The position numbers were made by a program, and so were the translations under genes. Below, piece by piece: positions 11,873 to 40,315 of a DNA stretch of 42,936 nt (position 1 is the first letter of the stretch; each line of letters opens with the position of its first letter). The stretch is from Promethearchaeota archaeon (GTDB taxonomy: Archaea > Asgardarchaeota > Lokiarchaeia > Sigyniarchaeales > SOKP01), in contig JBHLME010000023.1 of the NCBI GenBank assembly GCA_048938445.1, positions 1-42,936 of the forward strand, written 5' to 3'. Below the pieces are notes generated by a model that had not been told where the DNA came from, did no database searches, and saw only the letters and a program-made list of their open reading frames with translations.

Positions 11873-11974
11873 TAATGTTAGAAATCATTACTTATATAAT
11901 AATTAATAAAGTTATAAGAAATCTAAATCATATCAAGATAGAATTTAAAATTCTTTTTTATCTTTTTAATTTTT

Positions 11975-13771: not shown

Positions 13772-14077
13772 TTAGAAAATTGATGACATAATCATGCTTA
13801 AAAGGCTAACAATGAATATACATAAAAGAGCAACTAAAATTCCAGCAATTCCAAAGATCAATCCAACAATTCCCGGTGCTTTACTATCATTTGTAGCTAT
13901 CCCTACTATACTTAAGATAACACCTACACCAGGGAGAATTAGCCATAGTAAATCTATTATTACGGGATATGCTATTAAATCTTTTAAGAATGGTGCTATC
14001 AATAAAGGTCCAATTATGGCAAGAGCAAGTCCAAAGATACTCAATACTAATCCAGTAATACCTGATCCATTTCCCAC
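13772..14077 (-). CDS. Small 3-TM membrane protein, tandem paralogue 1 (DUF4190-like)
   Basis: MGNGSGITGLVLSI...LSIVGIATNDSKAPGIVGLIFG; GTG start; conserved in three neighbours. Confidence 0.85.
   Translation of the reverse strand: MGNGSGITGLVLSIFGLALAIIGPLLIAPFLKDLIAYPVIIDLLWLILPGVGVILSIVGIATNDSKAPGIVGLIFGIAGILVALLCIFIVSLLSMIMSSIF
13845..13915. repeat. 71-bp exact direct repeat, copy 1 (second copy at 15556-15626)
   Basis: gcaattccaaagatcaatccaacaattcccggtgctttactatcatttgtagctatccctactatacttaa is present in both paralogue 1 and paralogue 4. Confidence 0.9.
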
Positions 14078-14324
14078 TTAAATCACTATTTCATCTTTTT
14101 TTGTTATTTTTCATTTGAATTTCTTAAAGATAATTGTATAACTATTGTTCTTGTATTATAAAAACCTACCTATTAGAACGTGTTCTATTTGAATATGCAT
14201 TAATGTATACTACAATCTTGAAAGTTGGTTTAGAAGATAATAAATTACTGAAATTGAATAATTGTTTATTACAAGAATAAATCTGAGTTCTATTATTAAA
14301 GAGAAAAAAAAATTAGATAAGATG

Positions 14325-14657
14325 TTAAAGATAAGGAAAAATTGATGGTAAGATCATTTGTATGAACATATTAATTAATATACTAGCGATAGCTACGACA
14401 ACTCCGATAAGCCCGAAGACTAAACCAATGATCCCTGGAGCTTTGTTATCATTTGTAGATACACCTATTATAGATAAGATAGTACCGATTCCAGGAAGAA
14501 CAGGCGTGAAATAAATTGACGTGCTTAAAATATATAAGAAAATTCCAGTAATACCTACGAATAGTGCCATTATTATATACAATAAGGTCATAACGATAGT
14601 TACCACAAATCCAATGACACTTAAAACCAATCCTATAATACCAGTTGCGTTTCCCAA
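14325..14657 (-). CDS. Small 3-TM membrane protein, tandem paralogue 2 (start re-assigned to TTG at 14657; ORF track gives 14669)
   Basis: TTG-GGA-AAC aligns with the MGN start of the paralogues, and GGTGA lies 5 nt upstream of it; contains STNDNKAPG. Confidence 0.8.
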   Translation of the reverse strand: MGNATGIIGLVLSVIGFVVTIVMTLLYIIMALFVGITGIFLYILSTSIYFTPVLPGIGTILSIIGVSTNDNKAPGIIGLVFGLIGVVVAIASILINMFIQMILPSIFPYL

Positions 14658-14870
14658 TTGATTCACCATAAATTTTATCGGATTTTTTTATTAAGGTTTT
14701 TCTTAAAAAGATATAAGATTATTACTAATGTACAATAAAAATCTTTCGATGAAGGATGATTTTATAATAATAGTTTTGAGGTAATTAAATCTTAATATCT
14801 ATTAATTAAATCTATTTTTCTGAAAATATTCAAAAAAAAAAGGTAAAAAAAAGAGGTGTAAATCTTTTAA

Positions 14871-15215
14871 TTATGGATAGTAATAGTATGGCATCATCAT
14901 CATCATTTGAAAAAATCCAAGTAATAATATACCAACGATAGATAATGCAACTCCGATAAGTCCAAAGACCAAACCAACAATTCCTGGAGCCTTACTGTCA
15001 TTTGTGGCGATGCCTACTATACTTAAAATAGTTCCAATTGCAGGAAGAACTGGTGTTAAATACATGGCTAGAGCTAAATAATTTGATAGAGTTATACTAA
15101 ATCCATACGATGGGCCCATTACTATTATTATAAAATTTATTAATGTAAGAACTATTGCAACGGCTACTCCTATGATACTTAAAACCAATCCTGTAATTCC
15201 TGTACCATTTCCCAT
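14871..15215 (-). CDS. Small 3-TM membrane protein, tandem paralogue 3
   Basis: MGNGTGITGLVLSI...ATNDSKAPG; C-terminal tail MMMMMPYYYYP. Confidence 0.85.
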   Translation of the reverse strand: MGNGTGITGLVLSIIGVAVAIVLTLINFIIIVMGPSYGFSITLSNYLALAMYLTPVLPAIGTILSIVGIATNDSKAPGIVGLVFGLIGVALSIVGILLLGFFQMMMMMPYYYYP

Positions 15216-15470
15216 TTAAATCACTAATCTTTCTGTTTTTGGTTTTTTATTTTTCTCTTCTTTATGAAGATAATATGTTTTTTTTTTTATATAATAAAAA
15301 TCTTTTGATTAGAGTAAAAAATGATAATTTTGGTTAGTATTATACTTCAACAAAACAAATCAAATACCTTGGATCATTCAAATTTCTTGAATTCAATAAA
15401 TACTTTATCCTTAAAATAATACTGAGTTTTAAGTTAATAAAAAAAAAAATAAGATTATAAGTTTAAATTA

Positions 15471-15788
15471 TTAGAAATATGTTGGCGTAAACATACTTAA
15501 AATGTAACTTATAAGGTCACCAAAGACTATGCCAAAAACAGCTACTAAAACCCCGGCAATTCCAAAGATCAATCCAACAATTCCCGGTGCTTTACTATCA
15601 TTTGTAGCTATCCCTACTATACTTAATATCACACCTATAGCAGGAAGAATTAACCACAGTAGATTTACTATCATTGCATTTCCTATAAAACCTATTAATA
15701 ATACATTTAAGAATATAGGTGCAATTATGGCAACAACAAGCCCAATGATGCTCAAAATTAATCCAGTAACACCTGATCCATTTCCCAT
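15471..15788 (-). CDS. Small 3-TM membrane protein, tandem paralogue 4
   Basis: MGNGSGVTGLILSI...ATNDSKAPG; GGTGA upstream. Confidence 0.85.
   Translation of the reverse strand: MGNGSGVTGLILSIIGLVVAIIAPIFLNVLLIGFIGNAMIVNLLWLILPAIGVILSIVGIATNDSKAPGIVGLIFGIAGVLVAVFGIVFGDLISYILSMFTPTYF
15556..15626. repeat. 71-bp exact direct repeat, copy 2
   Basis: Identical to 13845-13915 by manual comparison. Confidence 0.9.
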
Positions 15789-15956: not shown

Positions 15957-17780
15957 TTATTTGAATGCATCTTTAAACTGCATCTTATAAAGATGTTTAT
16001 AGAAACCTCCTTTTTTCACTAACTCCTCATGCGTGCCTTCCTCTACAATTTTTCCTTCATCTAAGACAACTATGCGATCTGAATTGATTATCGTAGATAA
16101 CCTATGAGCTATCGATATACTCGTTCGATCTTTTAATAAAGTCTCTAAAGCCTGTTGAATTAAAAGTTCAGAATATGGATCTATGCTAGAAGTTGCCTCA
16201 TCTAAAATGAGGATTGGCGGATCCGCAATCAACGCCCTAGCAAAAGCGATTAATTGTCGTTCTCCTGCCGAAAGTTTACTTCCTCTCTCTCCGACTTCAG
16301 TTTCATAACCTTTTTCAAGTTTTACTATGAAATCATGAGCACTTACCTTCTTAGCAACATCTATGATTTCTTCGTCTGTAGCGTCTAATCTCCCATATTT
16401 TATATTGTCCTTAATCGTACCTGAAAATAAAAAATTTTCTTGTAGGACAATTCCCATTTTTTCTCTCAAACTTTTGATTTTAACCTTCCTTAAATCAATT
16501 CCGTCAATTTCAATTATTCCATTTGATGGATCGTAAAATCTGCTAAGTAATTTAATAAAAGTACTTTTTCCAGCCCCAGTATATCCAACTAATGCTAATC
16601 TTTCTTTTTCTTTAATTTTAATATTAACTTGCTTTAAAATCGGGATATTTTCTTCATAATTAAAGTCCACGTTTTTATATTCTATTACACCTTTAATGCT
16701 ATCTAATTGAATTGATTTTACTATATCTTTAATATTTGTTTCTTCTTCAAGTATCGAGATAATACGAGCACCAGCAGCTATTGAATTTTGAAGAAGTGTA
16801 AAAAAACCTAAAAGAGAAAAAAATGGTTCAAAGAATTGGAATACATAAAAAATAAAAGCAACAAGTGAACCTTGTGTCATTAATCCTTCTCTTATTAACA
16901 ATCCTGCAGCAAAAAATAAAATTCCCAATGTAATAGTAATTGCAAACATTATGATCCCTGGAACGAACGCCATCAATTTTCCTGCTTTTATAGTGGTCTC
17001 GCGTTCTAATTCGGTTGAAGATTTAAATTCTAATAGATTTTCCTGTTCTACCGCAAATGATTGGATTATCCTCATTCCCAAGATTGATTCATCTAAATTA
17101 CTAGTTACAGTAGATACTCGATCTCGTAATTCATTAAAATATTTTCGTGCTTTTTTAAATAAAAATCCCCCAAATATAAGGATCATAGGTGTAATTATAA
17201 ATGATAATAATGTTAATTGCCAACTAAGAATAAACATTATAAATAAGACACCAAAAATTAAAAAAAAGTTCCCAATTACCACCAGCAAACCTGATTGTAT
17301 CAATTCTTGAATAGTATTTACGTCATTCGTGAGATAAGATATTTTTTTCCCTGCTGTTTTATCTTTCCCTTCATGATAATCTAGTCCCAATTCTTGAAAT
17401 TTAAAAAATAATTCCGCCCTTAAATTATACATTGTAATGGTTGCAAGTTTAGATATAATATATCCTTGAGCAATTCTTGTTAAAACCCCTGATATTGTAA
17501 ATATAAAGAATAATATCCCTAAAAATAAAATAAAATCCAAATTTCCGGTTGTAGAACCATAACTCCCCCCAAGACCCTCATCAATTAATGTTTTGAAGAT
17601 TAATGGAGTAAACCAGCTAAAAATTATGGTTAATACAATAAATAAAATTAAAGGATAAATTAATTTTCTATTTCCAATATTGACGTATTTATATAACTTT
17701 TTTATTACTTGTAAGGGTTTTAAATTATATTTCTCCTCAAGTTCTTTAAATTTTACTTTCTCTATGTCGTCATTCTCCAT
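15957..17780 (-). CDS. ABC exporter, fused TMD-NBD, consensus-site half of a heterodimer
   Basis: Walker A GYTGAGKS, Walker B ILILDEATSS, H-switch IAHRLS, degenerate signature LSAGERQ. Confidence 0.95.
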   Translation of the reverse strand: MENDDIEKVKFKELEEKYNLKPLQVIKKLYKYVNIGNRKLIYPLILFIVLTIIFSWFTPLIFKTLIDEGLGGSYGSTTGNLDFILFLGILFFIFTISGVLTRIAQGYIISKLATITMYNLRAELFFKFQELGLDYHEGKDKTAGKKISYLTNDVNTIQELIQSGLLVVIGNFFLIFGVLFIMFILSWQLTLLSFIITPMILIFGGFLFKKARKYFNELRDRVSTVTSNLDESILGMRIIQSFAVEQENLLEFKSSTELERETTIKAGKLMAFVPGIIMFAITITLGILFFAAGLLIREGLMTQGSLVAFIFYVFQFFEPFFSLLGFFTLLQNSIAAGARIISILEEETNIKDIVKSIQLDSIKGVIEYKNVDFNYEENIPILKQVNIKIKEKERLALVGYTGAGKSTFIKLLSRFYDPSNGIIEIDGIDLRKVKIKSLREKMGIVLQENFLFSGTIKDNIKYGRLDATDEEIIDVAKKVSAHDFIVKLEKGYETEVGERGSKLSAGERQLIAFARALIADPPILILDEATSSIDPYSELLIQQALETLLKDRTSISIAHRLSTIINSDRIVVLDEGKIVEEGTHEELVKKGGFYKHLYKMQFKDAFK

Positions 17781-17782
17781 TT

Positions 17783-19591
17783 TTAAGCCCTTTCCTCGAT
17801 TTTTAATGTAGAATATAATTTATAATAAATACCCTTAGTTTGAGCGATTAATTCCTCATGGGTTCCTACTTGAGCAATTTCTCCTTTATTTAACACGACT
17901 ATTCTATCAGCATTCCTCACGCTGGATAATCGTTGAGTTATTAAAAATGTCGTACTATTTTTAAAAACTTCTTTAAAGTGTTGTTGTATGGCGTATTCAG
18001 TATCAACATCTACCGAACTAGTTGCGTCATCTAAAATTAATATTTTAGGTTCAATAGCTAAGGCTCGAGCAATGGCCATTCTTTGCTTTTGCCCACCAGA
18101 TAAGGTCGTTCCTCTTTCACTTACTTTAGTATCATATCTTTCAGGTAGTTCTGTTTCAATGAAGCCATGAATGTCAGAAGCAATTGCTGCATCTTGAACT
18201 TTCCTTAAGCTAAGATCTCTTTTTCCGAATGCGATGTTTTCTCTAATTGTTCGAGAAAATAATAATCTATCCTGTGAAACATGTCCAATTTGACTTCGAA
18301 GGGATTTAAATGTAACATCTTTAATATTAATTCCATCAATTAAAATTTCTCCTTTAGTAACGTCATAAAACCTAGGTATTAAGTTTACCAGAGCAGTTTT
18401 ACCAGAACCAGTTGCTCCAAGGATTGCAATATTTTCTCCTGATTTAATTTTTATATTGATATTCTTTAAAATATAATGTTCATTTTCAGGTTTAAAAGAA
18501 AAATATACACTTTTAAATTCAATTTCACCTTTTATTGGGGGTAATTCAATTGCGTCAGGTTTTTCTTCAACAATAATTTTTGAATTTAAAATATTAGCAA
18601 CCCTATCACAAATTTCACTAATTTGTGGCATGTTACCTGTAAATCTTGTAATCTGGTATAAAGGTTCGACAGAAAAATTCATCAAGAGAATAAACGAAAA
18701 TAAATTTCCGAAAGTGATAAAATTAGAGAGAACAAAATATCCTCCTAATAATAAAACTATAAGAAAAGCAATATTATCAATTAAGTATATAATTGGATCA
18801 AATATAACTTGGAGCTTGATGATATTCATAGAATCATTAAAATATTTATCATTTTCTATAGTAAATTCATTAATTTCATGGTCTTCTCGAGCAAATGATT
18901 TAACAACTTGAATTCCTTGAATATTTTCTTGAATTTTATGGGTTAAATCTGCATAAGATTCTCTTGATTTTTTATAAACAGGTCTCATTTTTTTTCTAAA
19001 TCTAAGGAGTACGAAAAATAAGGGGGGAGACATGATTAAAACAAATATAGCAAGTTGAAAATTGATTATAAAAAGAAAAATAAAACTGAATAAAAAAGTA
19101 GTTAATTGTCTCACAAAAAACTGTAAATTATTTCCTAAAAATTCCTTTAAATTATTTACATCACTAGTAGTACGTGAAATTAGCTCTCCAGTTTTATTAT
19201 CATCAAACCATTTAAAACTCATGATTTGAATAGTTGAGAATAAATCATTCCTGAGATTATTTATTACTTTAGCTCCAATTACCCTGTTTATATATATTCG
19301 CACTCCAAATATAATTCCAACAAAAATTTGAGTTATTAGTGCCATGATATAAATTGAAAATACATCAGTTATTAATTTAGAAGGATCAATTAAAATATCC
19401 ATGACTGGCCCTAAAAATAACGGTAATGTTAAGAAAAGAATGGATTGAACAATGCCAAATATTAAAATGAGGGAAAAAGATTTTTTATAATCCCAAAGAT
19501 ATGTCAAAATTTGCCTGAGGCTAGATTTATACTTTGTATTGAGAAAGTGTTCTCTTCTTTCTAAAAACTTATCATTAGCTTCTTTCTCCAT
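17783..19591 (-). CDS. ABC exporter, fused TMD-NBD, degenerate-site half of a heterodimer
   Basis: GATGSGKT, LSGGQKQR, Walker B ILILDDA (E to D), switch ITQRLS (H to Q). Confidence 0.95.
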   Translation of the reverse strand: MEKEANDKFLERREHFLNTKYKSSLRQILTYLWDYKKSFSLILIFGIVQSILFLTLPLFLGPVMDILIDPSKLITDVFSIYIMALITQIFVGIIFGVRIYINRVIGAKVINNLRNDLFSTIQIMSFKWFDDNKTGELISRTTSDVNNLKEFLGNNLQFFVRQLTTFLFSFIFLFIINFQLAIFVLIMSPPLFFVLLRFRKKMRPVYKKSRESYADLTHKIQENIQGIQVVKSFAREDHEINEFTIENDKYFNDSMNIIKLQVIFDPIIYLIDNIAFLIVLLLGGYFVLSNFITFGNLFSFILLMNFSVEPLYQITRFTGNMPQISEICDRVANILNSKIIVEEKPDAIELPPIKGEIEFKSVYFSFKPENEHYILKNINIKIKSGENIAILGATGSGKTALVNLIPRFYDVTKGEILIDGINIKDVTFKSLRSQIGHVSQDRLLFSRTIRENIAFGKRDLSLRKVQDAAIASDIHGFIETELPERYDTKVSERGTTLSGGQKQRMAIARALAIEPKILILDDATSSVDVDTEYAIQQHFKEVFKNSTTFLITQRLSSVRNADRIVVLNKGEIAQVGTHEELIAQTKGIYYKLYSTLKIEERA

Positions 19592-19719: not shown

Positions 19720-20808
19720 ATGCATTTTAGTCTACAAAATGGATTTCAGTATGTTAAAAATTTCATTTTAAACAATTTTACCAATATTAAGGTTCCATAT
19801 TCTGCACAAATTGAACTAACATTACGATGTAATGGACGATGTTCATTCTGTTCGATTCATCGCTTACCAAAGTCATTCACCCAAGAAAATAACGAGATAT
19901 CCACTAAAGAAGTCAAAAAAATAATTTCTGAAATATCAGATATGGGCATTCTTGCATTATCCTTTACAGGTGGAGAACCAACTTTAAGAAAGGATTTACC
20001 AGAATTAATTTACCATGCTGGTATTAAACATGATTTCATTACAGGAGTTGCAACTAATGGATATCTCCTGCCAAAATTATTCAAAGAATATGATTTAGAG
20101 GGATTAGATTACATTTTAATGTCTTTAGATTACCCTTCTGCACCTTTGCATGATAAAATGCGAGGTTTGAAAGTATATGATAAAGTTATTCAATCTATTG
20201 AAATGGCTAACAAGAAGGATATTAAAGTCATTATTAGTACCGTTGTCATGAAAGATAATCTGAAATATCTCCATGAAATCTGTGAATTAGCTTTAAATTT
20301 AAATTGTTCTATTGAAATGTATCCTTGCGAAGATATTATACGTGATTTTCCAGATAAAAGCTATCAAGTTGAAAATCTAGATGAAATCATTCCAGATATC
20401 TCTAAATGGGCAAATATTATACGATCGTTAAGAAAAATGTATAAAAACATTTTAACAGACCCATTAAGTGTTGAAGTAATAGAAAAAGGTGGATTTGGAG
20501 GAATGCCTAAACATCATCAAAGTCTTTTAAGATGTCATGTCGCTGAAGCTTATTTGTTTGTAAGATACGATGGTCTTATTGATTATCCATGCAAAATTCA
20601 TCCAATAATTAGTCTGGATGCGCTAAAATACCCCATTTTTAAGATATATAATTCCAAAGAAGTGCGAGAAATAATGAAAAAACATGATGGATACGACTTT
20701 TGCAATAGATGTAGATTAGGATGTGCCATTACATCATCAATGCCTGCAAGATGGAAAACGGTATATGCAAAATATATAAAAGGATTCTTAGATGGAAATT
20801 TAAGTTAA
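19720..20808 (+). CDS. Radical SAM protein with SPASM/twitch-like domain
   Basis: CNGRCSFC, FTGGEPTL, ATNG, RCH...DGLIDYPC...CNRCRLGC. Confidence 0.9.
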   Translation: MHFSLQNGFQYVKNFILNNFTNIKVPYSAQIELTLRCNGRCSFCSIHRLPKSFTQENNEISTKEVKKIISEISDMGILALSFTGGEPTLRKDLPELIYHAGIKHDFITGVATNGYLLPKLFKEYDLEGLDYILMSLDYPSAPLHDKMRGLKVYDKVIQSIEMANKKDIKVIISTVVMKDNLKYLHEICELALNLNCSIEMYPCEDIIRDFPDKSYQVENLDEIIPDISKWANIIRSLRKMYKNILTDPLSVEVIEKGGFGGMPKHHQSLLRCHVAEAYLFVRYDGLIDYPCKIHPIISLDALKYPIFKIYNSKEVREIMKKHDGYDFCNRCRLGCAITSSMPARWKTVYAKYIKGFLDGNLS

Positions 20809-22112: not shown

Positions 22113-23354
22113 TTGAGATGTGATCTTAATTATATGCCCGATGAACATGAAGATGACGATAAATCAATCATTGATGCGCTTTCATCACTAGGTTGGCAAG
22201 AAGAGAGTGAAGAAATAGAAACTATTAGTGAAGAAAGCTCAGTAGTAGAGCAATATATTTTTTTAAAGAAACAATATAAAAAATTACAAAAAGATCTATC
22301 TGAAAAAGCTAGTCAAGTTGATAATCTAAATAGAGATCTTCAAGAAATCACTAACGAAAAACATGAAGCTATGCGTAGAATTGAAGAACAATCCGTGCAA
22401 ATTAATAATTTATTCCAAACAATTGAAGATAATAAAGATGAGACAAGTAAAATTGTCGAAGAAAAAAATAAAATAATTGAGGAATTAAGTCAAAATGTTC
22501 AAGACTTGACTCAAAATGCTCATGTTCAGGATACCCCGGATGCTTCTGTTGTTGAATTAAAGGAATTACTTAGCGATAAAGATCAAGAAATTGAGCAATT
22601 ATATTCCCAATTATATGAACAAAAGAAACAATTTGAAGAAACTAACTCTTTACATTCAGAACAGGAACATAAAATGAAAGAATTATCCTTACAGCTTGAA
22701 CATACCCTTTCACAACAAACTGAATTTTCAAACCAAATAACACTTAAAGATAATAGAATAAAAGAATTAATGGAACAGGTTCAATATCTCGAATCAGATA
22801 CGATTCAAAAATCTAAATATAATAAACTTGAATTATTGGTTGAAAAAAAGGATGAAATCATTACAGAGAAAGAAAAAAACATTTTTGAATTAAACAATAC
22901 TCTTAACTCCGCAAATCAAAAAATAAACAATTTACAACAACAAATAGAAACTTTTAATCTTGTTAAAAAAGATTTGGAGATAAAGGAGGGGAAAGTTCAA
23001 TCATTATTAAATGAATTAGAGCAGTTAAAACATGAAGTAGCTTCAAAGTCAGAAATTATTAAAACGCTTGAGGAAAAATTACGCGAATCACAAGATATAA
23101 TGACAAAATTTCAAGCAAATTCAGAACTCCTAAATCAAAAAGAGCAAGAATTAGATCAAGTAAAAAAGGATAATCAAGAAATTAAAGATAGATTTTTGGA
23201 AACTGAACAAATAGAGGATCGAATTTTATCTGATCTCCAGAAGGTTAAAGACCAAAATCTTATATTAGAATCTAAAATAGAAGAAAAGAATAATGAAATA
23301 ATTGAGTTAAAGAAAAAAATAAAATTATTACGTAGGGATTTGTTTAAACCTTAA
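22113..23354 (+). CDS. Long coiled-coil protein with acidic N-terminus (start probably ATG at 22134)
   Basis: About 350 aa of E/K/Q/L heptad-like sequence with almost no Gly or Pro. Confidence 0.8.
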   Translation: MRCDLNYMPDEHEDDDKSIIDALSSLGWQEESEEIETISEESSVVEQYIFLKKQYKKLQKDLSEKASQVDNLNRDLQEITNEKHEAMRRIEEQSVQINNLFQTIEDNKDETSKIVEEKNKIIEELSQNVQDLTQNAHVQDTPDASVVELKELLSDKDQEIEQLYSQLYEQKKQFEETNSLHSEQEHKMKELSLQLEHTLSQQTEFSNQITLKDNRIKELMEQVQYLESDTIQKSKYNKLELLVEKKDEIITEKEKNIFELNNTLNSANQKINNLQQQIETFNLVKKDLEIKEGKVQSLLNELEQLKHEVASKSEIIKTLEEKLRESQDIMTKFQANSELLNQKEQELDQVKKDNQEIKDRFLETEQIEDRILSDLQKVKDQNLILESKIEEKNNEIIELKKKIKLLRRDLFKP

Positions 23355-29753: not shown

Positions 29754-30278
29754 CTATCGGGTAAAAGAAAAATCTTTATTCAAGAGTTTTGTATAATCTT
29801 CCAATGTGCTTAAAATCTCTTTTAAAGTTTTATTACTACATTCTCTACCAGATTCAAGAATATAGCTTTTATTTATGTTACCTTCAAAAGTGATTCTAAA
29901 GAATACTCTCCTTAAATTAAAATACTGATAAATTCTATTAATAGAAATTTTTTCTATCTCTGCCCAACTTATTCGAAGAATTTCTCGAGTAGGAGCATCA
30001 AATTCAATATAATCTTTAGTAATTATGAATCTTCTTTGCTTTGTTGCACCTAGAAATATTCGAAATATTAACAACAATGAAATTATTGCTGCGGCAATAC
30101 AAAGTCCAATTGATATGATAATTCTTAGATTAGGGTCTACATTTTCGACTGGTTGGATAAATGATGCCACGGGGATACCAATGGCTATTGCCCATATCCA
30201 AATCACGCAACAAATTCCAATAGAAAATTGTTTTTTTAAAGTCTCTTCTATTTCTAATTTATTAGGATCTTCCATCAT
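29754..30278 (-). CDS. Hypothetical protein with 2 TM helices and a beta-rich (bacterial PH-like) C-terminal domain
   Basis: Two hydrophobic helices, then FIITKDYIEF...ISWAEIEKI; GGAG SD upstream. Confidence 0.65.
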   Translation of the reverse strand: MMEDPNKLEIEETLKKQFSIGICCVIWIWAIAIGIPVASFIQPVENVDPNLRIIISIGLCIAAAIISLLLIFRIFLGATKQRRFIITKDYIEFDAPTREILRISWAEIEKISINRIYQYFNLRRVFFRITFEGNINKSYILESGRECSNKTLKEILSTLEDYTKLLNKDFSFTR

Positions 30279-30479: not shown

Positions 30480-33400
30480 ATGTCAATTAGAAAAATTTTT
30501 CTATTTAAAAAATATATTCTAATACATAATCGTTATAATAATGAATCAAGGCTAATATCAATGTGTTCCTTCCATTTACCATGGATACCTGAGTTTGATT
30601 ATATTCAAGATAAAATCAAGAAACCAATCAAGATAGGTAGGGCCATTGATTATATTAAAGAAGAAATTTTAAAAAAAGAAATTTTTAAAAATAGCGAGAT
30701 CTTATTCTGGACTATTTTATCATTAGAACGGTTGAATAAATTAGAATTAATAGAAAATAAAAATCTGATAAAGAAATATATTATTGATCTAAAACATCCT
30801 GATGGTGGATATAAATCTTCTCCTGAAGATGATATTGAGCCCGATGTGTGTAGTTCATTTTATTGTATTGCAGTTTTGAAGATATTGGGATTTGAGAATA
30901 TCATAGAGGAGAAAGACATAAACTTTATTATTAAATCCCAAGGTTTAGCTTCTGGAAGTGATGGGGGATTCATTCATTGCAGATCTCCCTATTGCAGTAT
31001 AAATTGTGATGGCCGACCATCAATCAAATCTACTTTATATGCGCTTTCTATTTTATCTATAACGAATAACATTGATAAAATTGATAAAATAAGGTTGTTA
31101 TCATATTTAAGAAAATCCTTTCACGATGATTTAGATTCAATATTTCAAATATTTTGTTTAATCATTTTGAATGAATTGAATACTATAAATATTGAAAAAA
31201 AGGCGTCTCGTTGGAAAATTCTCTCCCTAGGTTTTAAAATTAACGAGGGGTACCCCTCGATCGAATATATATATTGGGCTTCGCTCTGTCTTAATTTAAT
31301 AAATAAACTTGAAGATGTTGAATTTGAAGTTATGATTAATTTCTTTAAAACAATGCAACAAGAAAATGGAGGATTTACAAACCAATATACAAGTATTAGC
31401 ACAATAGAACCTAGTTTATTAAGTACATGTCAAAGTATACTCTGTTTTTATTTAATTTGGGATGAATTAATCAATATTGTTGAAAAAGACATTATTTTAA
31501 GATCACAAGATAATCCTGAAATCTACTTTTTTCCAATTAGTAAAAAATATTCGATTCCATTAAAATTAGTAAAAAAAATAGCAATTTGGTTAATATCTAA
31601 TAACTGGATTGATGGTAAAATATTAGACAAAGCAGATCTCTATCAAAATTATTTTGACCATCAAAACATAATCCCACAAGAAATCATCAGTAAACTTATG
31701 GAACTAATAAAAACTAATATAAAAGACAATGAAATTGATTTGAATGAATTTAGTAAAAATTTCACCTTTTCTAATGCTTTAGAACGAGTAAAATTAGTAA
31801 TTAATGATTTAATCATCAATCAATTTTTAATGGGTAACATAAAATCTGTGAGAAGAAAATATATACTAGAGGATTATGCAATTCTTGGTGAATATATACA
31901 ACTCAATACTCCAGTGTTTTATAGAGAAATCCTCAATGAAAAATTAAGAATTAAGGATGCAATATATAAAATTGCTACAATAAGATATAAACTAATAGAT
32001 TTTATTAATAAAAATTCTCAAGAAGCTCAAATTTTAGCGGAAAAGGAAAAAATTCTTGAAGCTAAGGACAAAGTAAATCAAATTGGAGAATTTATTGGAA
32101 TTAAAATAAGAAATTTTGAAGGATTACTCAATCAAATTAAATCAAGCCACCATTTCGTAAATTCAAAGTTATTATTAGAAAAATTCGATGAGAATTGGTC
32201 AGTTATCGATAAATATATAGAAAAAATACTGTCAGAAGAAAAAGCAAAGCTTGTTGAAATTATCAAACAAAAAGAGAAAGATATCGCACATCGAATGGAA
32301 GAAGAAAAAGAAATGGGGATAATAAAGGAATTAAATTTAAATTTAGAAGAAATAGATAAGAAGTTCCATTTTCTACTTAACTTAACTGAACAAAAAGCAT
32401 CAAAAAAACTTTATAAGACTATTTTTGATTTTGTTGAACAGTCTAATGCAAATATGGAGACCATAATTAAAGAAAAAACACCTGAAATTAAGTTAGACCC
32501 ATTTAAGACAGAATTTAATAATATAAAACAGTCTTGGGGAGAAAAACAAGAAAATTTGCACGATTTTTTAAAGATTTATCAAAGTGTAATAGATAATGGT
32601 CGAGAATTAAAAAATTTCATTAATACAAGGATTTCTAGACTACAGAAATTGATTGAAGAAAAAAGTATCCAAATAATTAAAATGATAAATGAAAATAAAC
32701 TCCATGAAAGTTCCACGTTATTAGATAATAATATTATTAGTATAAAGGAGTTATTTCAAGAGGAAAACAGAGAATTTTATGATAAAATTAATGAGGTTGA
32801 AGAAAAGATAGATATCTTCTCTATATATACAACTGAACTTAAAATATCTTGGGATATTAAATTAAATCAAGAAAAAAAGAACTGGGATGATGTTGCAGGA
32901 GAACTTAAGGAAAAAATCTATTCAAGTATGGAAAAATTGAAAAAAGATGAATTAGTACAGAGACTGGTTGAAAATGTTGATGATCTAAAGTGGTTAATGA
33001 ATAATATGAAATTAACAACTGAGTCATTAATAAAAGCTAAAAACTTAAAGGATGCTCAAAATAAAAGCAAGGATTTAGAAATAGAATTAAATCAAAGATT
33101 AGAAAAGTATGATAAAGAATTTAAAGATTATATAAAGATTTCAATTCAAGAATTTAATGAAATTAGTAAAATTGAAAAAGAATTAATTAAAGAATGGGAC
33201 GCAAGAAAAAAAGAAATTTTTCATTCACTTGAAGAAATTAAATTAGATTTAGCAGAGCATATGGATACTACAGGTTCAGCTGAAAAAAAATCTAAATTAC
33301 AGGATTTAATTAGAGATGGTCATTCGAAAATCGAAAATGAATTAAATAAATTCGAGTTAAATTATCATGATGTCCTAAAATTTAAAAAAAATATTGATAA

Positions 33401-34274
33401 ATTCGAGCAAAAATTTCATTCAGATGCAGAACACATAAAAGATTATATAAAAACCTTAGATGAAGATATTAAGCAATTCATAAAAACAGAATCCCGCGAA
33501 TTTAAACATTTTAATGAATTAATTTTAAAAGAATTAGAATTTTGGGATACAACTAAACTATCATTAAAAGATAGTTTAGACTCAATTTATGAAAAAGTAG
33601 ATGAAAAATTCTTCATCAAGAAAGTTCACTATTACGTAAATGCCTTCAAGGGAAAGAGAATTGATCTGAAATCTTTAAGTGAAATGATGAAGATTAAAAC
33701 AAAACCATTAAAATTAAAATTAATTGACTTAATTTCAAATTCCAAGTTAATTGGAGAGTTAGATTCGACTAATAATACATTAAGTTTATTGGATGCTCCC
33801 TTAGGAGAACAGTACTCCTATAAAAAGAGTTCTACAAAAGAAAAATTAAAAAAAGAAACCGATCCAACGAAACGAGACATTTTAAGTCTACGTTATATTA
33901 TTGTCGTTCACACTCAAGTAGGTGCAACAATATATAACCGGAAATTAGGAGATTGGCAGATGGAGGCAGATTTAATTGGAGGATTTCTTTCAGCCATACA
34001 AGATTTTAGTCTTGAAATAAAAAAGAAACAAATTCCAATAGAAAAGATGGCTTATAAAGAGTTTGAGATAATGTTGGAACAAGGAAATTATGTCCTGATA
34101 GCTTTATTTATAGATGGAAAAGGTTCAGATTGGATACGAGAAAAACAGAAATTATTTGTAAAGAAATTTGAAAAATATTATGAGTCAAACTTGAAAAATT
34201 GGAGAGGAGAATTAACTCATTTTAGCAATGCGGGTTATTTAGTTGATGAAGTATTTGAATTATATCGTGTGTGA
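30480..34274 (+). CDS. Large multidomain protein: prenyltransferase-beta-like repeats, PCI-like winged helices, helical rod and C-terminal longin-like domain (start possibly ATG at 30561)
   Basis: HPDGGY, SQ...DGGF and QQENGGF repeats; RIDLKSLSEMM...LIDLISNSKLIGELD; ADLIGGFLSAIQDFS...FEKYY...NWRG. Confidence 0.75.
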   Translation: MSIRKIFLFKKYILIHNRYNNESRLISMCSFHLPWIPEFDYIQDKIKKPIKIGRAIDYIKEEILKKEIFKNSEILFWTILSLERLNKLELIENKNLIKKYIIDLKHPDGGYKSSPEDDIEPDVCSSFYCIAVLKILGFENIIEEKDINFIIKSQGLASGSDGGFIHCRSPYCSINCDGRPSIKSTLYALSILSITNNIDKIDKIRLLSYLRKSFHDDLDSIFQIFCLIILNELNTINIEKKASRWKILSLGFKINEGYPSIEYIYWASLCLNLINKLEDVEFEVMINFFKTMQQENGGFTNQYTSISTIEPSLLSTCQSILCFYLIWDELINIVEKDIILRSQDNPEIYFFPISKKYSIPLKLVKKIAIWLISNNWIDGKILDKADLYQNYFDHQNIIPQEIISKLMELIKTNIKDNEIDLNEFSKNFTFSNALERVKLVINDLIINQFLMGNIKSVRRKYILEDYAILGEYIQLNTPVFYREILNEKLRIKDAIYKIATIRYKLIDFINKNSQEAQILAEKEKILEAKDKVNQIGEFIGIKIRNFEGLLNQIKSSHHFVNSKLLLEKFDENWSVIDKYIEKILSEEKAKLVEIIKQKEKDIAHRMEEEKEMGIIKELNLNLEEIDKKFHFLLNLTEQKASKKLYKTIFDFVEQSNANMETIIKEKTPEIKLDPFKTEFNNIKQSWGEKQENLHDFLKIYQSVIDNGRELKNFINTRISRLQKLIEEKSIQIIKMINENKLHESSTLLDNNIISIKELFQEENREFYDKINEVEEKIDIFSIYTTELKISWDIKLNQEKKNWDDVAGELKEKIYSSMEKLKKDELVQRLVENVDDLKWLMNNMKLTTESLIKAKNLKDAQNKSKDLEIELNQRLEKYDKEFKDYIKISIQEFNEISKIEKELIKEWDARKKEIFHSLEEIKLDLAEHMDTTGSAEKKSKLQDLIRDGHSKIENELNKFELNYHDVLKFKKNIDKFEQKFHSDAEHIKDYIKTLDEDIKQFIKTESREFKHFNELILKELEFWDTTKLSLKDSLDSIYEKVDEKFFIKKVHYYVNAFKGKRIDLKSLSEMMKIKTKPLKLKLIDLISNSKLIGELDSTNNTLSLLDAPLGEQYSYKKSSTKEKLKKETDPTKRDILSLRYIIVVHTQVGATIYNRKLGDWQMEADLIGGFLSAIQDFSLEIKKKQIPIEKMAYKEFEIMLEQGNYVLIALFIDGKGSDWIREKQKLFVKKFEKYYESNLKNWRGELTHFSNAGYLVDEVFELYRV

Positions 34275-34286: not shown

Positions 34287-34748
34287 TTATAAGAAATTTA
34301 TTTGAATCGTAATATTCGTTTCTGCAAATACCTCCTTAATAGTCCTGCTGATTTTATTCCAATTACCTCCATCCAATCCACTAGCTATTTTGGGCATTGC
34401 TAAAAATTGCTCTCCTTCACTAATCATTTGATCTCTCATATTTTTAAGTGTATGAAAAAGTTGTCGATAATAATTTTCTTCATAATCACCTTTAGCTTTT
34501 TGCCATACCTTATGTTTTGTAACCAAGTTATAAATTGTATGACCACTCTCTTGATACTTTACTGCTTTTCCAACTTCTAATTTTTGGGAAATCTTTTCTG
34601 CCATCTTTGGGTAGAAATTTCGAAAAATCTTCGCTATACCTTTATTCATATTTTTTTCTTTAGTCACATCAGCAGATATGCAATGTGCTAATACCCATTT
34701 ATTTCTATCAACATCAAATAAATCTCCTTTCATTTCCTGATATTTCAT
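34287..34748 (-). CDS. Macrodomain protein, TARG1/OARD1(Poa1p)-like ADP-ribose hydrolase
   Basis: GDLF, AHCISAD, GIA..F, YNLVTK, MPKIASGLDGGNW; AGGAG SD. Confidence 0.85.
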   Translation of the reverse strand: MKYQEMKGDLFDVDRNKWVLAHCISADVTKEKNMNKGIAKIFRNFYPKMAEKISQKLEVGKAVKYQESGHTIYNLVTKHKVWQKAKGDYEENYYRQLFHTLKNMRDQMISEGEQFLAMPKIASGLDGGNWNKISRTIKEVFAETNITIQINFL

Positions 34749-37542: not shown

Positions 37543-39597
37543 TCATTCTCCTTCTTGAACATCGAAAAGATCAGAATTAGGATCCAGAAATACATTTTGG
37601 CATGTAGGGCATGAATTATATTTTGATAACCAAAATGCAACACATAAATAATGATATGTATTCTCACAAAATGGGCATTTAATGATATTATCCTTGGCAA
37701 AATTTATAAATTCATGACACACCGTGCATTTTACAGTCGAATCTACTATTCCTTCCTTAGTTTTTACGCGAATTGTTAAAATTTCTTCAATTTTAGATAA
37801 TTCTTGACGATATAATTCAGTTATAGTCTCATTTTTTTTAATTGTTGCCTGCAATTCAGAAATCCTTTCTTTAAGTTCTTCAATAGTCATTTTATCTGCT
37901 AATACATCTGACAAGGCAAAATTGAGTGGTATCTCATTAATGTCCGTCTTATTATCCGAAATTTCTGTTATTGTATCGAACAATGTTTCTTCTTCTTCTA
38001 TCAATGTTTTAAAATTCTTAAAAATCTTATTTAACATTAATGAGAGGAGGAAACTTAATTGTTGCCGTTTTTTATGAAAATTATCTTCCCACTGCTTAAT
38101 AATTTGATACATGTCAATATCTTTTGTTTTAAATGAATCTAATTTCTTAAAAACCTCTTCCTTGATAATGCTAATCTTTTCCTTGTAATCACTCAAAATT
38201 TTTCTAATTTGCTTGAGTTGTGGAAATTCTTCTCTTATTATCATAGAAGTTTCGTCTTCATATGTACTTATATATTCATTTAATTCCTTAATTTTTTCTA
38301 AAACAAAATTTTGAATATTTTCTCGTAATCTTTCCTTTTTGACCGTCTTTAAATAGAATTCGTACTCATTCTTTCTTCGAGTAATTTCAGAAGTTATGTT
38401 GATAATGATTTTATTCAATGATTCAACAATTGAATCATATGGTTTGAGTATATCTTCAAATATTGCGATATTGTTTTCTAAATCTTCCATTATAGATGAT
38501 AAAATATCAACTTTGGTTGAATATGATTCAATAATGTTCTTAAATTCATCCAGATCACTCACTTCATTTATGATTTTTTGATATTTTTTTTCTAATCCAT
38601 TAAAATAATATTCCATGATTTTTGGTAAAAAAATACTAATTTTCTGGTTTAGAAGGTCTTCCAAATCTACTTTTTGATGTTCAGGTCCAATATCATGATA
38701 TTTGTTTAATTCACTGATCTCATTGATGATATCATTTAATTTATCCGCAATCAACTCCTTAATTATAGGTTGGATGAAAATTTTTAATTTATGTCTTATT
38801 TCTTTTGTATCAACAATATTTTTGAATTCGTCCTTAATTTCTTTAATATATTTATTTTTATAAATTAAAAATATTAGTTCCATGTAAATTTCAAAATCTT
38901 TACTGTATTTTTCAGAAATAAAATCATAAACATCTTTAAAATAAAACGCGTCCAACTCTTGTTTTTTCTTCTTTTTACCTTGAGGTTTATTTAAACTAAC
39001 AATGTATGTTTTTAAATCCTTGATCTCTTCCCAATATTCGATAACTGCGGGGATATTTGTGATATTGAAAAGTGAATTTTTGATTTGATTAGTTTCAATC
39101 CAAATATAGGATTGATTTTCATATTTTTTGTCAGGATTTTGAGTTATATTCTCTATATCTGAAATTAGCGCTTTACATTCTTCAGCTAGATCTTGGACTA
39201 AATTTAATAGGGTGTCTAAAAATACATTTTGCTTTATAAGTCTTTTTGTATTTTGAGAGTTCAAGCTTAAATTATGTAAGTTTTTTGAAATTAACTTGAG
39301 TTCATTTAAAATATTGGATTTTAAATTATAGTTATTAGTTATATTATTTCTTGATTTAATATCTTCATTTAATATTTGTTCTATAAAATTTTTTATATGA
39401 GAAAAATAAAGTGAATAATAATCAAGAACATTCTGATAAGAAAATTTTTCATTCAAATAATCATTTAATTTTTCTTGATCGGCGTTTTCTGCCTTTAAAT
39501 TTGAAATCTCTCTTTTAATTTCCAATATCTCATCTTTTGAAAAACTATTTATTTCTCTTAATCCAGCGAAATTATTTTTTATTAACTTCAAAGTCAA
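37543..39597 (-). CDS. Long helical/coiled-coil protein with C-terminal RING-type (C4HC3) zinc finger, putative E3 ligase
   Basis: CTVC-x13-CPFC-x4-H-x2-C-x3-W-x6-CPTC at about 37597-37728; TTG start. Confidence 0.8.
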   Translation of the reverse strand: MTLKLIKNNFAGLREINSFSKDEILEIKREISNLKAENADQEKLNDYLNEKFSYQNVLDYYSLYFSHIKNFIEQILNEDIKSRNNITNNYNLKSNILNELKLISKNLHNLSLNSQNTKRLIKQNVFLDTLLNLVQDLAEECKALISDIENITQNPDKKYENQSYIWIETNQIKNSLFNITNIPAVIEYWEEIKDLKTYIVSLNKPQGKKKKKQELDAFYFKDVYDFISEKYSKDFEIYMELIFLIYKNKYIKEIKDEFKNIVDTKEIRHKLKIFIQPIIKELIADKLNDIINEISELNKYHDIGPEHQKVDLEDLLNQKISIFLPKIMEYYFNGLEKKYQKIINEVSDLDEFKNIIESYSTKVDILSSIMEDLENNIAIFEDILKPYDSIVESLNKIIINITSEITRRKNEYEFYLKTVKKERLRENIQNFVLEKIKELNEYISTYEDETSMIIREEFPQLKQIRKILSDYKEKISIIKEEVFKKLDSFKTKDIDMYQIIKQWEDNFHKKRQQLSFLLSLMLNKIFKNFKTLIEEEETLFDTITEISDNKTDINEIPLNFALSDVLADKMTIEELKERISELQATIKKNETITELYRQELSKIEEILTIRVKTKEGIVDSTVKCTVCHEFINFAKDNIIKCPFCENTYHYLCVAFWLSKYNSCPTCQNVFLDPNSDLFDVQEGE

Positions 39598-39697: not shown

Positions 39698-40315
39698 TTA
39701 TTCTCCTAATTCTTTAATTTCAATAAATTTTTCCTTTGCACCAGATTTGGTTATCGTTAGAATATCAATTCCATTACCAGACATCGCATCTCGTTTAATA
39801 GCACTGCGAATAGTCTTTTCTACGAGTTTTTCTCCTTGAGCAACTGTCATATCCGGTTTATATTCTGCTTCTAAAATTCCAATTGATAATAACATGCCGG
39901 TTCCCGCTGTACCATAATCATCAGGAATGAGAGAACCAATTGCATCAAGGGTGTATAATTTTGGGCCATCCTTATCCACTCCTGCAATTACTAAATTAGT
40001 ATATAGAGGAAACATTTTTCTGGAATATAGATAATTTGAAACCATTTTACCCATGCTTTTAGTAGAAATTTTCGCTCCTGCATCGAGTTCATATAGATTT
40101 GCTTGAGCTCGTAGTATTTTTACTAACATTTGAAAATCTCCAATTAAGCCATAGGCGGCCAATCCAATATTCTCAGTTATCTTGAATACTTTTTTAGTAG
40201 TTTTACTCGTAACTGTATACCCCCATGTTGCTCTATTATCATTACCAAGTACAACGCCATCTTTACATTTAATCGCAACACCACAAGCTCCTGGAACCAT
40301 TATTTCTTGAGACAT
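39698..40315 (-). CDS. psmB: Proteasome beta subunit lacking catalytic Thr1
   Basis: GACGVAIKCKDGVVLGNDNRAT, KKVFKI, GLIGDFQ, KRDAMSGNG. Confidence 0.92.
   Translation of the reverse strand: MSQEIMVPGACGVAIKCKDGVVLGNDNRATWGYTVTSKTTKKVFKITENIGLAAYGLIGDFQMLVKILRAQANLYELDAGAKISTKSMGKMVSNYLYSRKMFPLYTNLVIAGVDKDGPKLYTLDAIGSLIPDDYGTAGTGMLLSIGILEAEYKPDMTVAQGEKLVEKTIRSAIKRDAMSGNGIDILTITKSGAKEKFIEIKELGE

Follow-up and report, generated by a model that had tools for sequence, protein, structure and literature searches.

What would a single archaeal chain do that carries, one after the other, a barrel of the prenyltransferase-beta kind, winged helices, a long helical rod and a discrete C-terminal domain? 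The question is raised by an open reading frame in a stretch of 42,936 nucleotides (hereafter the window) from a Promethearchaeota archaeon of the Lokiarchaeia, whose initial annotation had proposed such a fusion and had interpreted it, with a longin domain at its end, as a possible tether or proto-prenylation module. All the elements of that layout (toroid, winged helices, rod and separate C-terminal domain) are found in the chain (Table 1). The reading that we favour, at slightly less than even probability, is that of a cytoplasmic, non-enzymatic and rod-shaped scaffold or tether of Asgard (Lokiarchaeia-type) archaea, which would be associated with a membrane.

The start of the protein is probably not the first ATG. 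M28 is the start in 17 of 17 homologues (alignment A1) and the ESM Atlas entry for the protein also begins at residue 28, which places the probable start at nt 30561 and gives a product of 1237 aa; residues are numbered here from the first ATG. About 45 nt upstream of nt 30561 there is an A/T-rich stretch that might play a TATA-like role. A search of the whole window against Rfam gave no match.

Table 1. Features of the reading frame and their positions in the window.
Feature	Position (nt)	Strand	Basis or remark
Whole ORF, 1264 aa from the first ATG	30480..34274	+	open reading frame
Alpha/alpha toroid, protein-prenyltransferase beta type (aa ~47-341)	30618..31502	+	PF00432
P121-D122-V123-C124, look-alike of the RabGGTase D-x-C	30840..30851	+	D122 invariant, C124 not
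H166-C167-x4-C172-x3-C176 loop, putative structural zinc knuckle	30975..31007	+	invariant 18/18; insert in repeat 3
Winged-helix-like module 1 (aa ~347-385)	31518..31634	+	predicted strand-helix-helix-strand, pLDDT ~90; no Pfam match
Winged helix 2 (aa ~397-475)	31668..31904	+	predicted helix-strand-helix-helix-strand-strand-strand; sub-cut-off PCI
Rod, five tandem three-helix repeats (aa ~482-1054)	31923..33641	+	invariant W573, W686, W791, W906, W1022
Winged helix 3, PCI-like (aa ~1055-1104)	33642..33791	+	model and sub-cut-off PCI
Variable linker (aa ~1105-1136)	33792..33887	+	columns poorly conserved; pLDDT < 50
C-terminal domain (aa ~1137-1264), unannotated Asgard family	33888..34271	+	943 representatives; predicted homodimer

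The fold of the head is specifically that of the beta subunits of protein prenyltransferases, as its N-terminal repeats had suggested. PF00432 is matched at 55.7 bits (cut-off 26.5; E 6.9e-15), the GG[FY] motif recurs at aa 109-111, 162-164 and 297-299, and the family profile aligns collinearly with RabGGTase beta (E 8.9e-18; profile 24-274, chain 21-281), the toroid being nearer to protein prenyltransferases than to cyclases. Among Asgard archaea, PF00432 toroids occur in 311 of the 400 genomes of the phylum, against none of 14 control genomes. Unlike the beta subunits of RabGGTase/GGTase-III, GGTase-I and FTase, with which it has the toroid in common, the head is fused to ~900 further residues, bears a Cys3His insert of eight residues in repeat 3 (relative to RabGGTase beta), has Ser and Glu or a variable residue in its family where the zinc-ligand Asp and Cys would be, and has no conserved His at hand for the zinc site; moreover, no alpha subunit, the other half of the heterodimer, was detected in its genome.

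Could this head prenylate? In protein prenyltransferases, repeat 5 supplies two of the zinc ligands, the Asp and Cys of a D-x-C motif, and repeat 6 the third, a His. The PDVC on which the catalytic idea had been based is present within EPDVCSSFYCIAVLKILG (aa 120-137), as is the Cys-rich loop downstream of it, and the accompanying caveat that the motif sits too early was justified, since by the collinear profile alignment it falls in repeat 2 and not in the catalytic repeat 5. D122 is invariant (18/18), but a Cys at position 124 is kept in only 2 of 18 homologues, and the catalytic LPDVC of RabGGTase beta (LPDVCYSWW) aligns with fPSIeY of the family (fPSIeYtfW), that is, with S260 and E262. The invariant or near-invariant His and Cys residues of the family are H166, C167, C172, C176 and C129 only, with no second His of this kind among the 18 aligned sequences. 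Regarding an alpha subunit, PPTA (PF01239) has 12 weak matches in the same genome, none above cut-off, and 5 of 14 control genomes give the like, TPR-like repeats being indistinguishable from PPTA at this level. The poor retention of Cys124, the repeat-2 position and the alignment of LPDVC with fPSIeY rule out the D-x-C as a catalytic motif, and the proto-prenylation module is not supported; on these alignments the head is without the catalytic zinc triad, which it lost or never had.

The loop in repeat 3 is a different matter. H166-C167-x4-C172-x3-C176 is invariant in 18/18, takes the form HCx4Cx2C in the homologue L056 and has disappeared from L057, and each of these two has an extra insert of ~65 aa beside it with four CxxC motifs; its third Cys is absent from most of the hydrophobic-tailed paralogues described below. 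To judge from this pattern of residues, it is most likely a structural zinc knuckle, which would bind zinc and, going by topology, would lie at the rim or mouth of the barrel beside the invariant Asp. The same residues admit another interpretation, in which the head would still be an enzyme, either an alpha-independent prenyl or thiol-alkyl transferase or a prenyl-carrying chaperone, with the metal site moved to D122 and H166/C167/C172/C176 and the client held by the dimeric tail. In its favour, these five residues are all invariant (18/18) and would belong to adjacent repeats, at the inner-helix ends that form the barrel mouth, but a Cys3His set is coordinatively saturated, as is typical of structural zinc, and the canonical ligand positions are occupied by S260 and E262. 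The affinity of the toroid to protein prenyltransferases rather than cyclases also fits; nonetheless, the loop is altered in L056 and lost in L057, where zinc-ribbon-like inserts are found instead, and most hydrophobic-tailed paralogues are without the third Cys. In two distant orthologues, G125 and G123, the gene stands divergent beside a trio encoding a thiolase, a DUF35 OB-fold protein and an HMG-CoA-synthase-like protein, which we take to be the entry into the mevalonate pathway, and that of G125 also adjoins a Ras-family GTPase gene; however, the trio is limited to these two, which belong to a single family, and is absent from the query's own genome. Furthermore, the possible substrates would be wanting, given that passages of PMC4915359 describe archaeal Rab-like proteins, those of Asgard archaea included, as devoid of C-terminal, prenylatable Cys residues. 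Taken as a whole, an enzyme with a relocated site is unlikely.

The immediate gene context of the query is a housekeeping one and has no bearing on its function. The neighbouring amino-acid-kinase gene is proB (TIGR01027, 8.3e-83) and the downstream gene is proA; an isopentenyl phosphate kinase, which would have provided an isoprenoid link, was considered for the former and ruled out (50.6 bits against a cut-off of 120). As proB is found at 5/9 loci and proA at 6/9, close relatives throughout, their flanking position is treated as inherited synteny.

The rod is all-helical over aa ~482-1054 (DSSP of a model with pLDDT ~90), in agreement with the ~550 residues of helix noted before, and it resolves into five tandem three-helix repeats of roughly 113 aa (~105-116 aa), each with one invariant Trp and all in register with one another by internal comparison; three homologues have one additional unit. 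Its best structural matches are tandem spectrin, plakin and nesprin repeats (197-281 residues of two- or three-repeat targets). In its architecture it agrees with spectrin-repeat rods, which are tandem three-helix bundles of ~106 aa linked by continuous helices and are common to spectrin, the plakins (plectin, desmoplakin) and the nesprins, albeit with no sequence match, PF00435 (Spectrin) giving none at E <= 10 for aa 481-1020.

On both sides of the rod, aa ~347-385, ~397-475 and ~1060-1103 adopt winged-helix-like secondary structure in confident models (pLDDT ~90), and the second of these segments is among the most conserved stretches of the family, with invariant or near-invariant columns dense at 424-454. 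The fold pattern proposed for the three PCI-like winged helices therefore stands, whereas Pfam gives no support for membership of PCI, every score being below the gathering cut-off of 22 bits (PF01399): the third reaches 18.1 bits (E 0.0031) when the full chain is scanned and 20.4 bits (E 6.2e-4) when aa 1021-1127 are taken alone, the second (aa 331-480) 16.9 bits (E 0.0076), and the first has no Pfam match at all. For aa 340-480 the Atlas offers generic winged HTH families, with scores of 0.76-0.81 that lie below the lead threshold.

There is nevertheless a likeness to PCI, the winged-helix module of the proteasome lid, CSN and eIF3: it is the family that gives winged helices 2 and 3 their best scores, CSN3 and DDRGK1 come up as structural matches for winged helix 3, and 7/18 homologues have a precomputed PF01399 annotation. 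Taken literally, it would make the protein a subunit of a PCI-type assembly, kin to those complexes, with the winged helices driving oligomerisation and the head and tail as accessories. This we regard as quite unlikely, since no match attains the cut-off, the helices that precede the winged helix look spectrin-like rather than like the TPR-like solenoid of PCI proteins, no lid-type partner such as an MPN protein is encoded next to it, and Foldseek returned no match at E <= 0.001. A nucleic-acid or chromatin scaffold, with the winged helices and zinc modules binding DNA or RNA and the rod as an SMC/Rad50-type spacer, is improbable too. There are indeed three winged helices with winged HTH leads among their sub-threshold scores, a putative zinc knuckle and zinc-ribbon inserts, but no Pfam DNA-binding family is matched, and the winged helices score best, if below threshold, with PCI, which mediates protein-protein contacts. 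In one source a homologue bears the name ‘prenyltransferase beta subunit/DNA repair exonuclease SbcCD ATPase subunit’, which most likely reflects coiled-coil composition. There is no ATPase head, and the rod is made of three-helix bundles and not of an antiparallel coiled-coil arm. Likewise, the helicase gene that adjoins the hydrophobic-tailed paralogue in 16/21 loci is convergent and hence not co-transcribed.

The last 128 residues (aa ~1137-1264) form a discrete, highly conserved domain, whose sequence places it in a large Asgard family that carries no annotation (943 representatives at E <= 0.001, 45 ORFs in the same genome) and whose boundaries are supplied here. Neither the single sequence nor the profile matches anything in Pfam, NCBIfam or the PDB; the longin-type families (Longin, Sybindin, Sedlin, Fuz_longin, adaptor sigma) give no match at E <= 10 for aa 1112-1264, and no longin-type family is among the matches listed (25 of 31 families) for 27 members of the domain family compared with Pfam at E <= 1. 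A search for shorter homologues returned only fragments of the same family, and ten small members carry either no name or that of ‘hypothetical protein’. Within the genome, sub-threshold Fuz_longin_1 matches are confined to three other members of the family, all recovered by the domain HMM, which recovers none of the 16 mapped Robl_LC7 ORFs, nor the Sybindin ORF; hhalign against the genome's own Roadblock profile gives 20.8 % probability over 43 columns. One Atlas lead for the query is a Roadblock/LAMTOR2 cluster (22 % Fuz_longin_1; rank 11, score 0.88).

As for its structure, the domain has pLDDT < 50 in the model of a long construct, where DSSP reads a short helix, two strands, a helix, two strands and helices, the reference longin fold being strand-strand-helix-strand-strand-strand-helix-helix with no N-terminal helix; Foldseek on the C-terminal model gave no match at E <= 0.001, with the low-confidence domain (pLDDT < 50) left out of the fold search. 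Homodimer predictions (ESMFold2) reach ipSAE values of 0.69, 0.69 and 0.68, while the best of three controls stays at 0.00, with at least 92 % of the contacts shared between runs and a partner pLDDT of at least 87 (87-88); this mark is reached by 20/30 proteins solved as one-chain pairs and by 1/23 single chains, counts that are rough, the own alignment having been used. The predicted interface comprises the helix at aa 1159-1182 and the strand at aa 1185-1197 (residues 35-58 and 61-73 of the 140-residue query), residue 66 of that query contacting its own copy. The domain is thereby predicted to homodimerise via a helix and an edge strand, which is how the Asgard longin/roadblock platforms (Tran et al. 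2024, PMC10933270) pair, by central helix and edge strand. It also resembles those platforms in its ~128 aa and in a strand-strand-helix-strand-strand-helix-helix order, predicted with low confidence in the query, but differs in having no Pfam longin, roadblock, sybindin or sedlin match. A longin/roadblock-like fold is plausible on these models, so that of the longin-like C-terminus first proposed there remain a discrete domain and a predicted dimer suited to such a platform, but not a longin-type sequence match.

Members of the domain family stand alone, occur in large proteins or, in one ORF, are fused to a Ras-like GTPase. The GTPase engagement first proposed for the tail finds no support in gene context, as Ras-family genes are not enriched beside the domain genes: 4/45 of these have one at 1 kb or less, where the null averages 3.0 and 4 is reached in 373 of 1000 random draws, a null that is rough in that it also draws the GTPase ORFs themselves.

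A paralogue in the same genome (L059:2213-6604) is homologous to the query over 745 columns (hhalign 99.7 %, E 1.9e-25), and in it and its 20 orthologues alike the C-terminus is a hydrophobic stretch, 16-28 residues long, which is likely transmembrane. This form is present in 131/134 genomes of the same family and 12/14 of the sister family, and the tailed form with the C-terminal domain in ~12 of the 400 genomes; in the explanation that we favour, the hydrophobic-tailed paralogue is the older, near-universal form. Two domain-bearing genes flank it in the query's genome, which would have made a ‘Rosetta stone’ of toroid and tail-domain neighbours; it was dropped as evidence because the arrangement is not conserved (2/21 loci, both from the query's own genus, plus two with one such gene ~4 kb off).

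How might these parts act together in a scaffold or tether? The head, of the same stock as the eukaryotic protein-prenyltransferase beta subunits, would most likely serve as a binding module, its ligand being an isoprenoid chain, a peptide or a protein. Behind it, two winged helices would lead into a stiff spectrin-like rod of roughly 25 nm, as a spectrin-type repeat is ~5 nm long and there are five of them. The tail would consist of the PCI-like winged helix, a flexible linker and the C-terminal domain, predicted to pair tail to tail in the manner of roadblock/longin platforms, and it is most likely with this end that the protein would dock, at a membrane or at a partner bound to one, while the head is kept at a distance, because the paralogue has its hydrophobic, probably membrane-spanning C-terminus in the same position. 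The tether foreseen in the initial annotation thus stays plausible with its head, rod and predicted dimeric tail, whereas a head that prenylates is not supported. The proposed logic is that of golgins and EEA1, long coiled-coil tethers anchored by their C-terminus, in which one end of the rod carries a capture module and the opposite end docks at a membrane or a GTPase; unlike them, the query has a rod of three-helix repeats in place of a parallel coiled coil, and no GRIP, GRAB or FYVE.

In the literature, no description of the protein was found, although supplementary tables of ESP catalogues could list its family, nor anything joining Asgard archaea with prenyltransferase and longin, with prenyltransferase and small GTPase, or with ‘spectrin repeat’; the terms ‘prenyl’, ‘toroid’, ‘spectrin’ and ‘PCI’ are all absent from the main text of preprint 10.64898/2026.10.28.762692. 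A table in PMC4917890 lists the prenylation machinery as absent from Lokiarchaeum, passages of PMC4915359 note only generic beta-subunit-like folds in archaea so far, and where the excerpted text of PMC10933270 deals with geranylgeranyltransferase it concerns eukaryotic Rab prenylation.

There is finally a far-reaching version, very unlikely in our estimate, in which the toroid binds isoprenoid and, with its Asp/Cys3His site, would be an alpha-free prenyl handler (transferase or lipid chaperone) or a reader of archaeal isoprenoid membranes, with a spectrin-like spacer between it and a GTPase platform of the longin type. If true, the eukaryotic connection of a RabGGTase-beta-type enzyme with a longin (GGTase-III with Ykt6) and a small GTPase would have an archaeal precursor here, and archaea would have their first spectrin-like element of a membrane skeleton. 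Short of that, one conserved giant chain combines a prenyltransferase-beta toroid, a spectrin-like rod, PCI-like winged helices and an Asgard domain, probably as a dimeric platform, and a domain with 45 ORFs in its own genome gains a name and boundaries. Should the scaffold or tether prove to be a membrane-attached spacer, it would bear on the organisation of the Asgard envelope and protrusions, and on the origin of eukaryotic prenylation, spectrin-type rods and longin platforms.

The gene lies in DNA of ~26 % G+C, and its residues are numbered here from the first ATG. Since 17 of 17 homologues in the alignment and the ESM Atlas entry for the protein begin at Met28, the true gene start is probably nt 30561, for a product of 1237 aa, with a seemingly TATA-like A/T-rich stretch ~45 nt 5' of the Met28 codon. 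A word-indexed search returned 18 homologue clusters, one identical to the query and the others sharing 21-72 % identity over lengths of 1082-1458 aa; where named, they are hypothetical proteins from Lokiarchaeota/Promethearchaeota or Hodarchaeota MAGs, names by which the source organism is an Asgard archaeon. No published description of this architecture was found in the literature searched; supplementary ESP tables, outside that search, may list the family.

Coordinates of the protein, its modules and its relatives, with scores of the rod comparisons
Feature	Location	Strand	Score	Detail
Protein ORF	window 30480..34274	+		single open frame, 1264 aa
Winged-helix-like modules 1, 2	aa ~347-385, ~397-475		pLDDT ~90	model
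Repeats 3 vs 4			95.9 %	E 5e-9, in register
Repeats 4 vs 5			96.5 %	E 7e-10, in register
Repeats 3 vs 5			57.6 %	offset ~11 columns
Repeats 2 vs 4			37.4 %	in register
Repeats 1 vs 4			22.6 %	in register
Repeats 2 vs 3			19.9 %	in register
Other four repeat pairs			< 3 %	
Rod match, plectin SR7-8			13.5	208 of 229
Rod match, beta2-spectrin			13.1	281 of 301
Rod match, plectin SR3-4			12.6	197 of 205
Rod match, nesprin-2			11.4	208
Rod match, desmoplakin			11.3	352
Rod match, alpha-spectrin pairs			10.3-11.0	
Tandem paralogue, genome G128	L055:11796-13919	+		708 aa; half a rod, PCI-like winged helix, tail; no toroid
Hydrophobic-tailed paralogue, source genome	L059:2213-6604			1463 aa; same toroid, winged helices and rod, plus PCI-like winged helix

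The N-terminal head matches PF00432 (Pfam; 55.7 bits, E 6.9e-15, cut-off 26.5), and the model of aa 28-520, computed from an 18-row alignment, reaches a pLDDT of 86.9 and a pTM of 0.82. Against the PDB, Foldseek gave 45 matches at E <= 0.001, comprising 43 prenyltransferase beta chains and two CD109 entries, with RabGGTase beta (1ltx_B) at the top (E 2.9e-9, TM 0.74 on the target, 300 columns). Class II terpene cyclases scored 13.6-17.1, well under the prenyltransferases, the remaining toroids (mostly glycosidases) 16.9 at most, and thioester domains 13.5-14.1; because these alternative classes score far lower, the barrel is of the protein-prenyltransferase type, a more specific assignment than a generic toroid.

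The initial annotation had taken PDVC (aa 121-124) for the D-x-C motif of RabGGTase beta, and there is indeed a local phmmer match, but its register is off by three repeats. A collinear alignment of the family profile (positions 24-274) with the RabGGTase beta chain (residues 21-281; E 8.9e-18) makes the repeat of D122 repeat 2 and pairs the LPDVCYSWW of the enzyme with the family's fPSIeYtfW. The positions corresponding to the Asp and Cys zinc ligands of RabGGTase beta are therefore S260 and E262 in the query, the latter variable, and Cys124 occurs in only 2 of 18 sequences, Trp being the usual residue. Across the 18-row alignment, the His and Cys residues in invariant or near-invariant columns are H166, C167, C172, C176 and C129, with no third-ligand His in the last repeat among them. 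In the 4.63-Mb source genome, the PPTA repeats of an alpha subunit give no match above the cut-off, and the weak ones resemble matches obtained in 5 of 14 control genomes. Judged from sequence, the head probably lacks prenyltransferase activity.

A relocated active site, or some prenyl-handling function, would be a rival to this, given that D122 and H166-C167-x4-C172-x3-C176 are invariant (18/18) and, by the repeat topology of prenyltransferases, would be located at the barrel mouth. Relative to RabGGTase beta, the loop is an insertion of 8 residues in repeat 3, placed after the GGF turn and before the inner helix. In two distant orthologues (genomes G125 and G123, 31 % identity), repeats 2 and 3 are separated by an extra ~65-aa insert containing four CxxC motifs; HCx4Cx2C is retained in one of the two, and the other is without the loop. 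With its four-ligand Cys3His set, and with zinc-ribbon-like inserts recurring at the same rim, the putative zinc site looks like a structural decoration of a binding face and not a catalytic centre, and we regard this rival as improbable.

The winged helices that follow had been called PCI-like, a label that is fair as a description, whereas membership of the PCI family is unsupported, the matches being sub-threshold (16.9 bits for the module at aa ~397-475, which ranks with the family's most conserved regions). Two other readings could be built on these modules, a nucleic-acid-associated scaffold and a PCI-type assembly subunit, and both appear unlikely. Beyond them, the model of aa 481-1264 has a pLDDT of ~90 over its residues 1-574 and a pTM of 0.42, a value to be expected when the chain is elongated, and its helices are by turns long (65-75 aa) and short (28-36 aa). 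Trp is invariant at 573, 686, 791, 906 and 1022 (spacing 105-116 aa), and the table gives the hhalign probabilities between the 113-aa family sub-alignments around each of these residues; three homologues have one additional repeat unit. The top structural matches of the rod are tandem spectrin-type repeats. In the same model, aa 1106-1264 stay at a pLDDT below 50, and the structural search therefore covered the rod side and not the tail.

The tail was approached through its relatives, which are numerous: a HMMER search with aa 1125-1264 against 1.84 billion representatives found 943 proteins at E <= 0.001 (250 at E <= 1e-10), 116-2774 aa long, with the domain terminal or internal. Ten large members inspected have TPR, Ig-like, PCI or HTH domains elsewhere in the chain and no Pfam family over the tail domain itself, and ten small ones are 'hypothetical' or nameless proteins of Helarchaeota and Lokiarchaeota MAGs. 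An HMM built from the hits matches 45 ORFs of the source genome, taking in 3/3 ORFs with sub-threshold Fuz_longin_1 matches, and neither the Sybindin ORF nor any of the 16 mappable Roadblock ORFs. One of the 45 has an N-terminal copy fused to a Ras-like GTPase, the same architecture that excerpts of PMC10933270 describe for longin domains of a cultured Lokiarchaeon. The nearest ESM Atlas clusters are nameless archaeal proteins of ~143-149 aa; a Roadblock/LAMTOR2 cluster with 22 % Fuz_longin_1 at rank 11 (score 0.88) is a lead only, and hhalign with the source genome's Roadblock profile is weak (20.8 %, 43 columns), with equivalent strand-strand-helix elements paired.

Predicted as a homodimer from a 53-row alignment, the tail attains a pLDDT of 87-88 and a score of 0.69, versus 0.00 for the best of three controls, a mark reached by 20 of 30 solved one-chain pairs and 1 of 23 solved single chains, this calibration being approximate with a custom alignment. 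At least 92 % of contacts agree between runs, and the predicted interface is made up of a central helix, aa 1159-1182, and of the next strand, aa 1185-1197, which runs antiparallel to its own copy. Roadblock-type platforms dimerise in this manner according to PMC10933270, and the score may partly reflect the predictor's memory of them. The longin-like call on the tail thus survives as a plausible longin/roadblock-like reading on the predicted dimer, but family membership does not follow from the profile comparisons.

Among 400 genomes of the phylum, 88 have a match to the protein at E <= 1e-20, in most of them to the tail domain only; matches over most of the length occur in ~12 (six of its own genus, source genome included, three of a second genus, and G128, G125 and G123). 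In G128 the tandem paralogue lies directly 3' of the full-length orthologue. PF00432 toroids overall are found in 311 of the 400 genomes versus 0 of 14 controls, and the source genome has four further ORFs with them. One, the hydrophobic-tailed paralogue (hhalign with the protein 99.7 %, E 1.9e-25, 745 columns), ends in a 23-residue hydrophobic run where the protein has its tail, and such a run, of 16-28 residues, is present in 21/21 orthologues examined. This form occurs in at least 150 of the 400 genomes, including at least 131/134 of its own family and at least 12/14 of the sister family, floors set by a stricter first-pass search, which found none outside the class; it is near-universal and apparently membrane-anchored. 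Another use of the toroid within the source genome is seen in L060:2386-5490 (+) on contig C242, which codes for a 1034-aa protein combining a strongly matching PF00432 toroid (E 1e-36) with the ATPase domain of an ABC transporter in one chain and is adjoined by a second ABC ATPase gene.

Gene context provides no firm functional link. Flanking it in the window, and in four to five close relatives, are proB (TIGR01027, 8.3e-83) and proA (NF001221, 3.8e-176), housekeeping genes, and inheritance is the simplest explanation of this synteny. G125 and G123 instead have a thiolase / DUF35 OB-fold / HMG-CoA-synthase-like trio in divergent orientation beside the gene; the best source-genome matches to the first two are on contig C163, which carries none of the five toroid ORFs, and the third has no match in the source genome at E <= 1e-10. 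Tail-domain genes flank the hydrophobic-tailed paralogue in 2 of 21 loci, both of its own genus, and are not enriched in Ras-family neighbours (4 of the 45 have one within 1 kb, against a mean of 3.0 under the null, and 373 of 1000 draws reach 4). In G125 the gene additionally converges on a gene for a Ras-family GTPase. This GTPase (L056:7212-8219, -) has an N-terminal extension of ~170 aa, unassigned to a family and matched by neither the tail-domain nor the Roadblock HMM, with full-length relatives on source contigs C54 and C176; the source genome has 88 Pfam Ras matches at E <= 1e-5 and 17 Robl_LC7.

Two ORFs, 34287-34748 (-) and 29754-30278 (-), flank the gene in the source genome only, with no counterpart at the syntenic loci; one is weakly macro/DarG-like (NF048014, E 1.5e-6), and for the other no family passes the threshold. 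Elsewhere in the window, four paralogous B12-binding radical SAM ORFs of ~490 aa each (7213-13462), two ABC exporters whose membrane and ATPase domains share one chain (15957-19591) and a radical SAM/SPASM protein (19720-20808) are grouped in what looks like a cluster modifying a peptide or lipid. Four tandem ORFs (13772-15788, -; 101-114 aa) separate these radical SAM ORFs from the exporters. They encode small hydrophobic glycine-rich paralogues in which TND-x-KAPGI is invariant and identity to the first is 47-63 %; the one scanned has no Pfam match. A 413-aa coiled-coil ORF (22113-23354, +) is weakly SMC-like (TIGR02168, E 8.4e-9, far under cut-off), and a 684-aa ORF (37543-39597, -), whose one family match is a sub-threshold C-terminal RING finger at aa 623-667 (zf-RING_2, E 5.2e-4), is followed by a proteasome beta-type subunit gene (39698-40315, -).

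Our leading, still tentative, reading is that the protein is a non-enzymatic rod-shaped scaffold or tether, in which the head of prenyltransferase-beta ancestry would act as a binding module, the rod as a spacer of ~25 nm, and the tail would pair with its own copy and dock, probably on a membrane or on some partner bound to one. Behind this reading stand observed folds, repeats, conservation and distribution and a predicted dimer, while zinc binding, the ligand, the association with membranes and the role itself are inferred. The protein's presence in ~12 of 400 genomes, against the hydrophobic-tailed form in at least 131 of 134 of its own family, suggests a patchy derivative of that form, in which a domain predicted to dimerise would substitute for the anchor.
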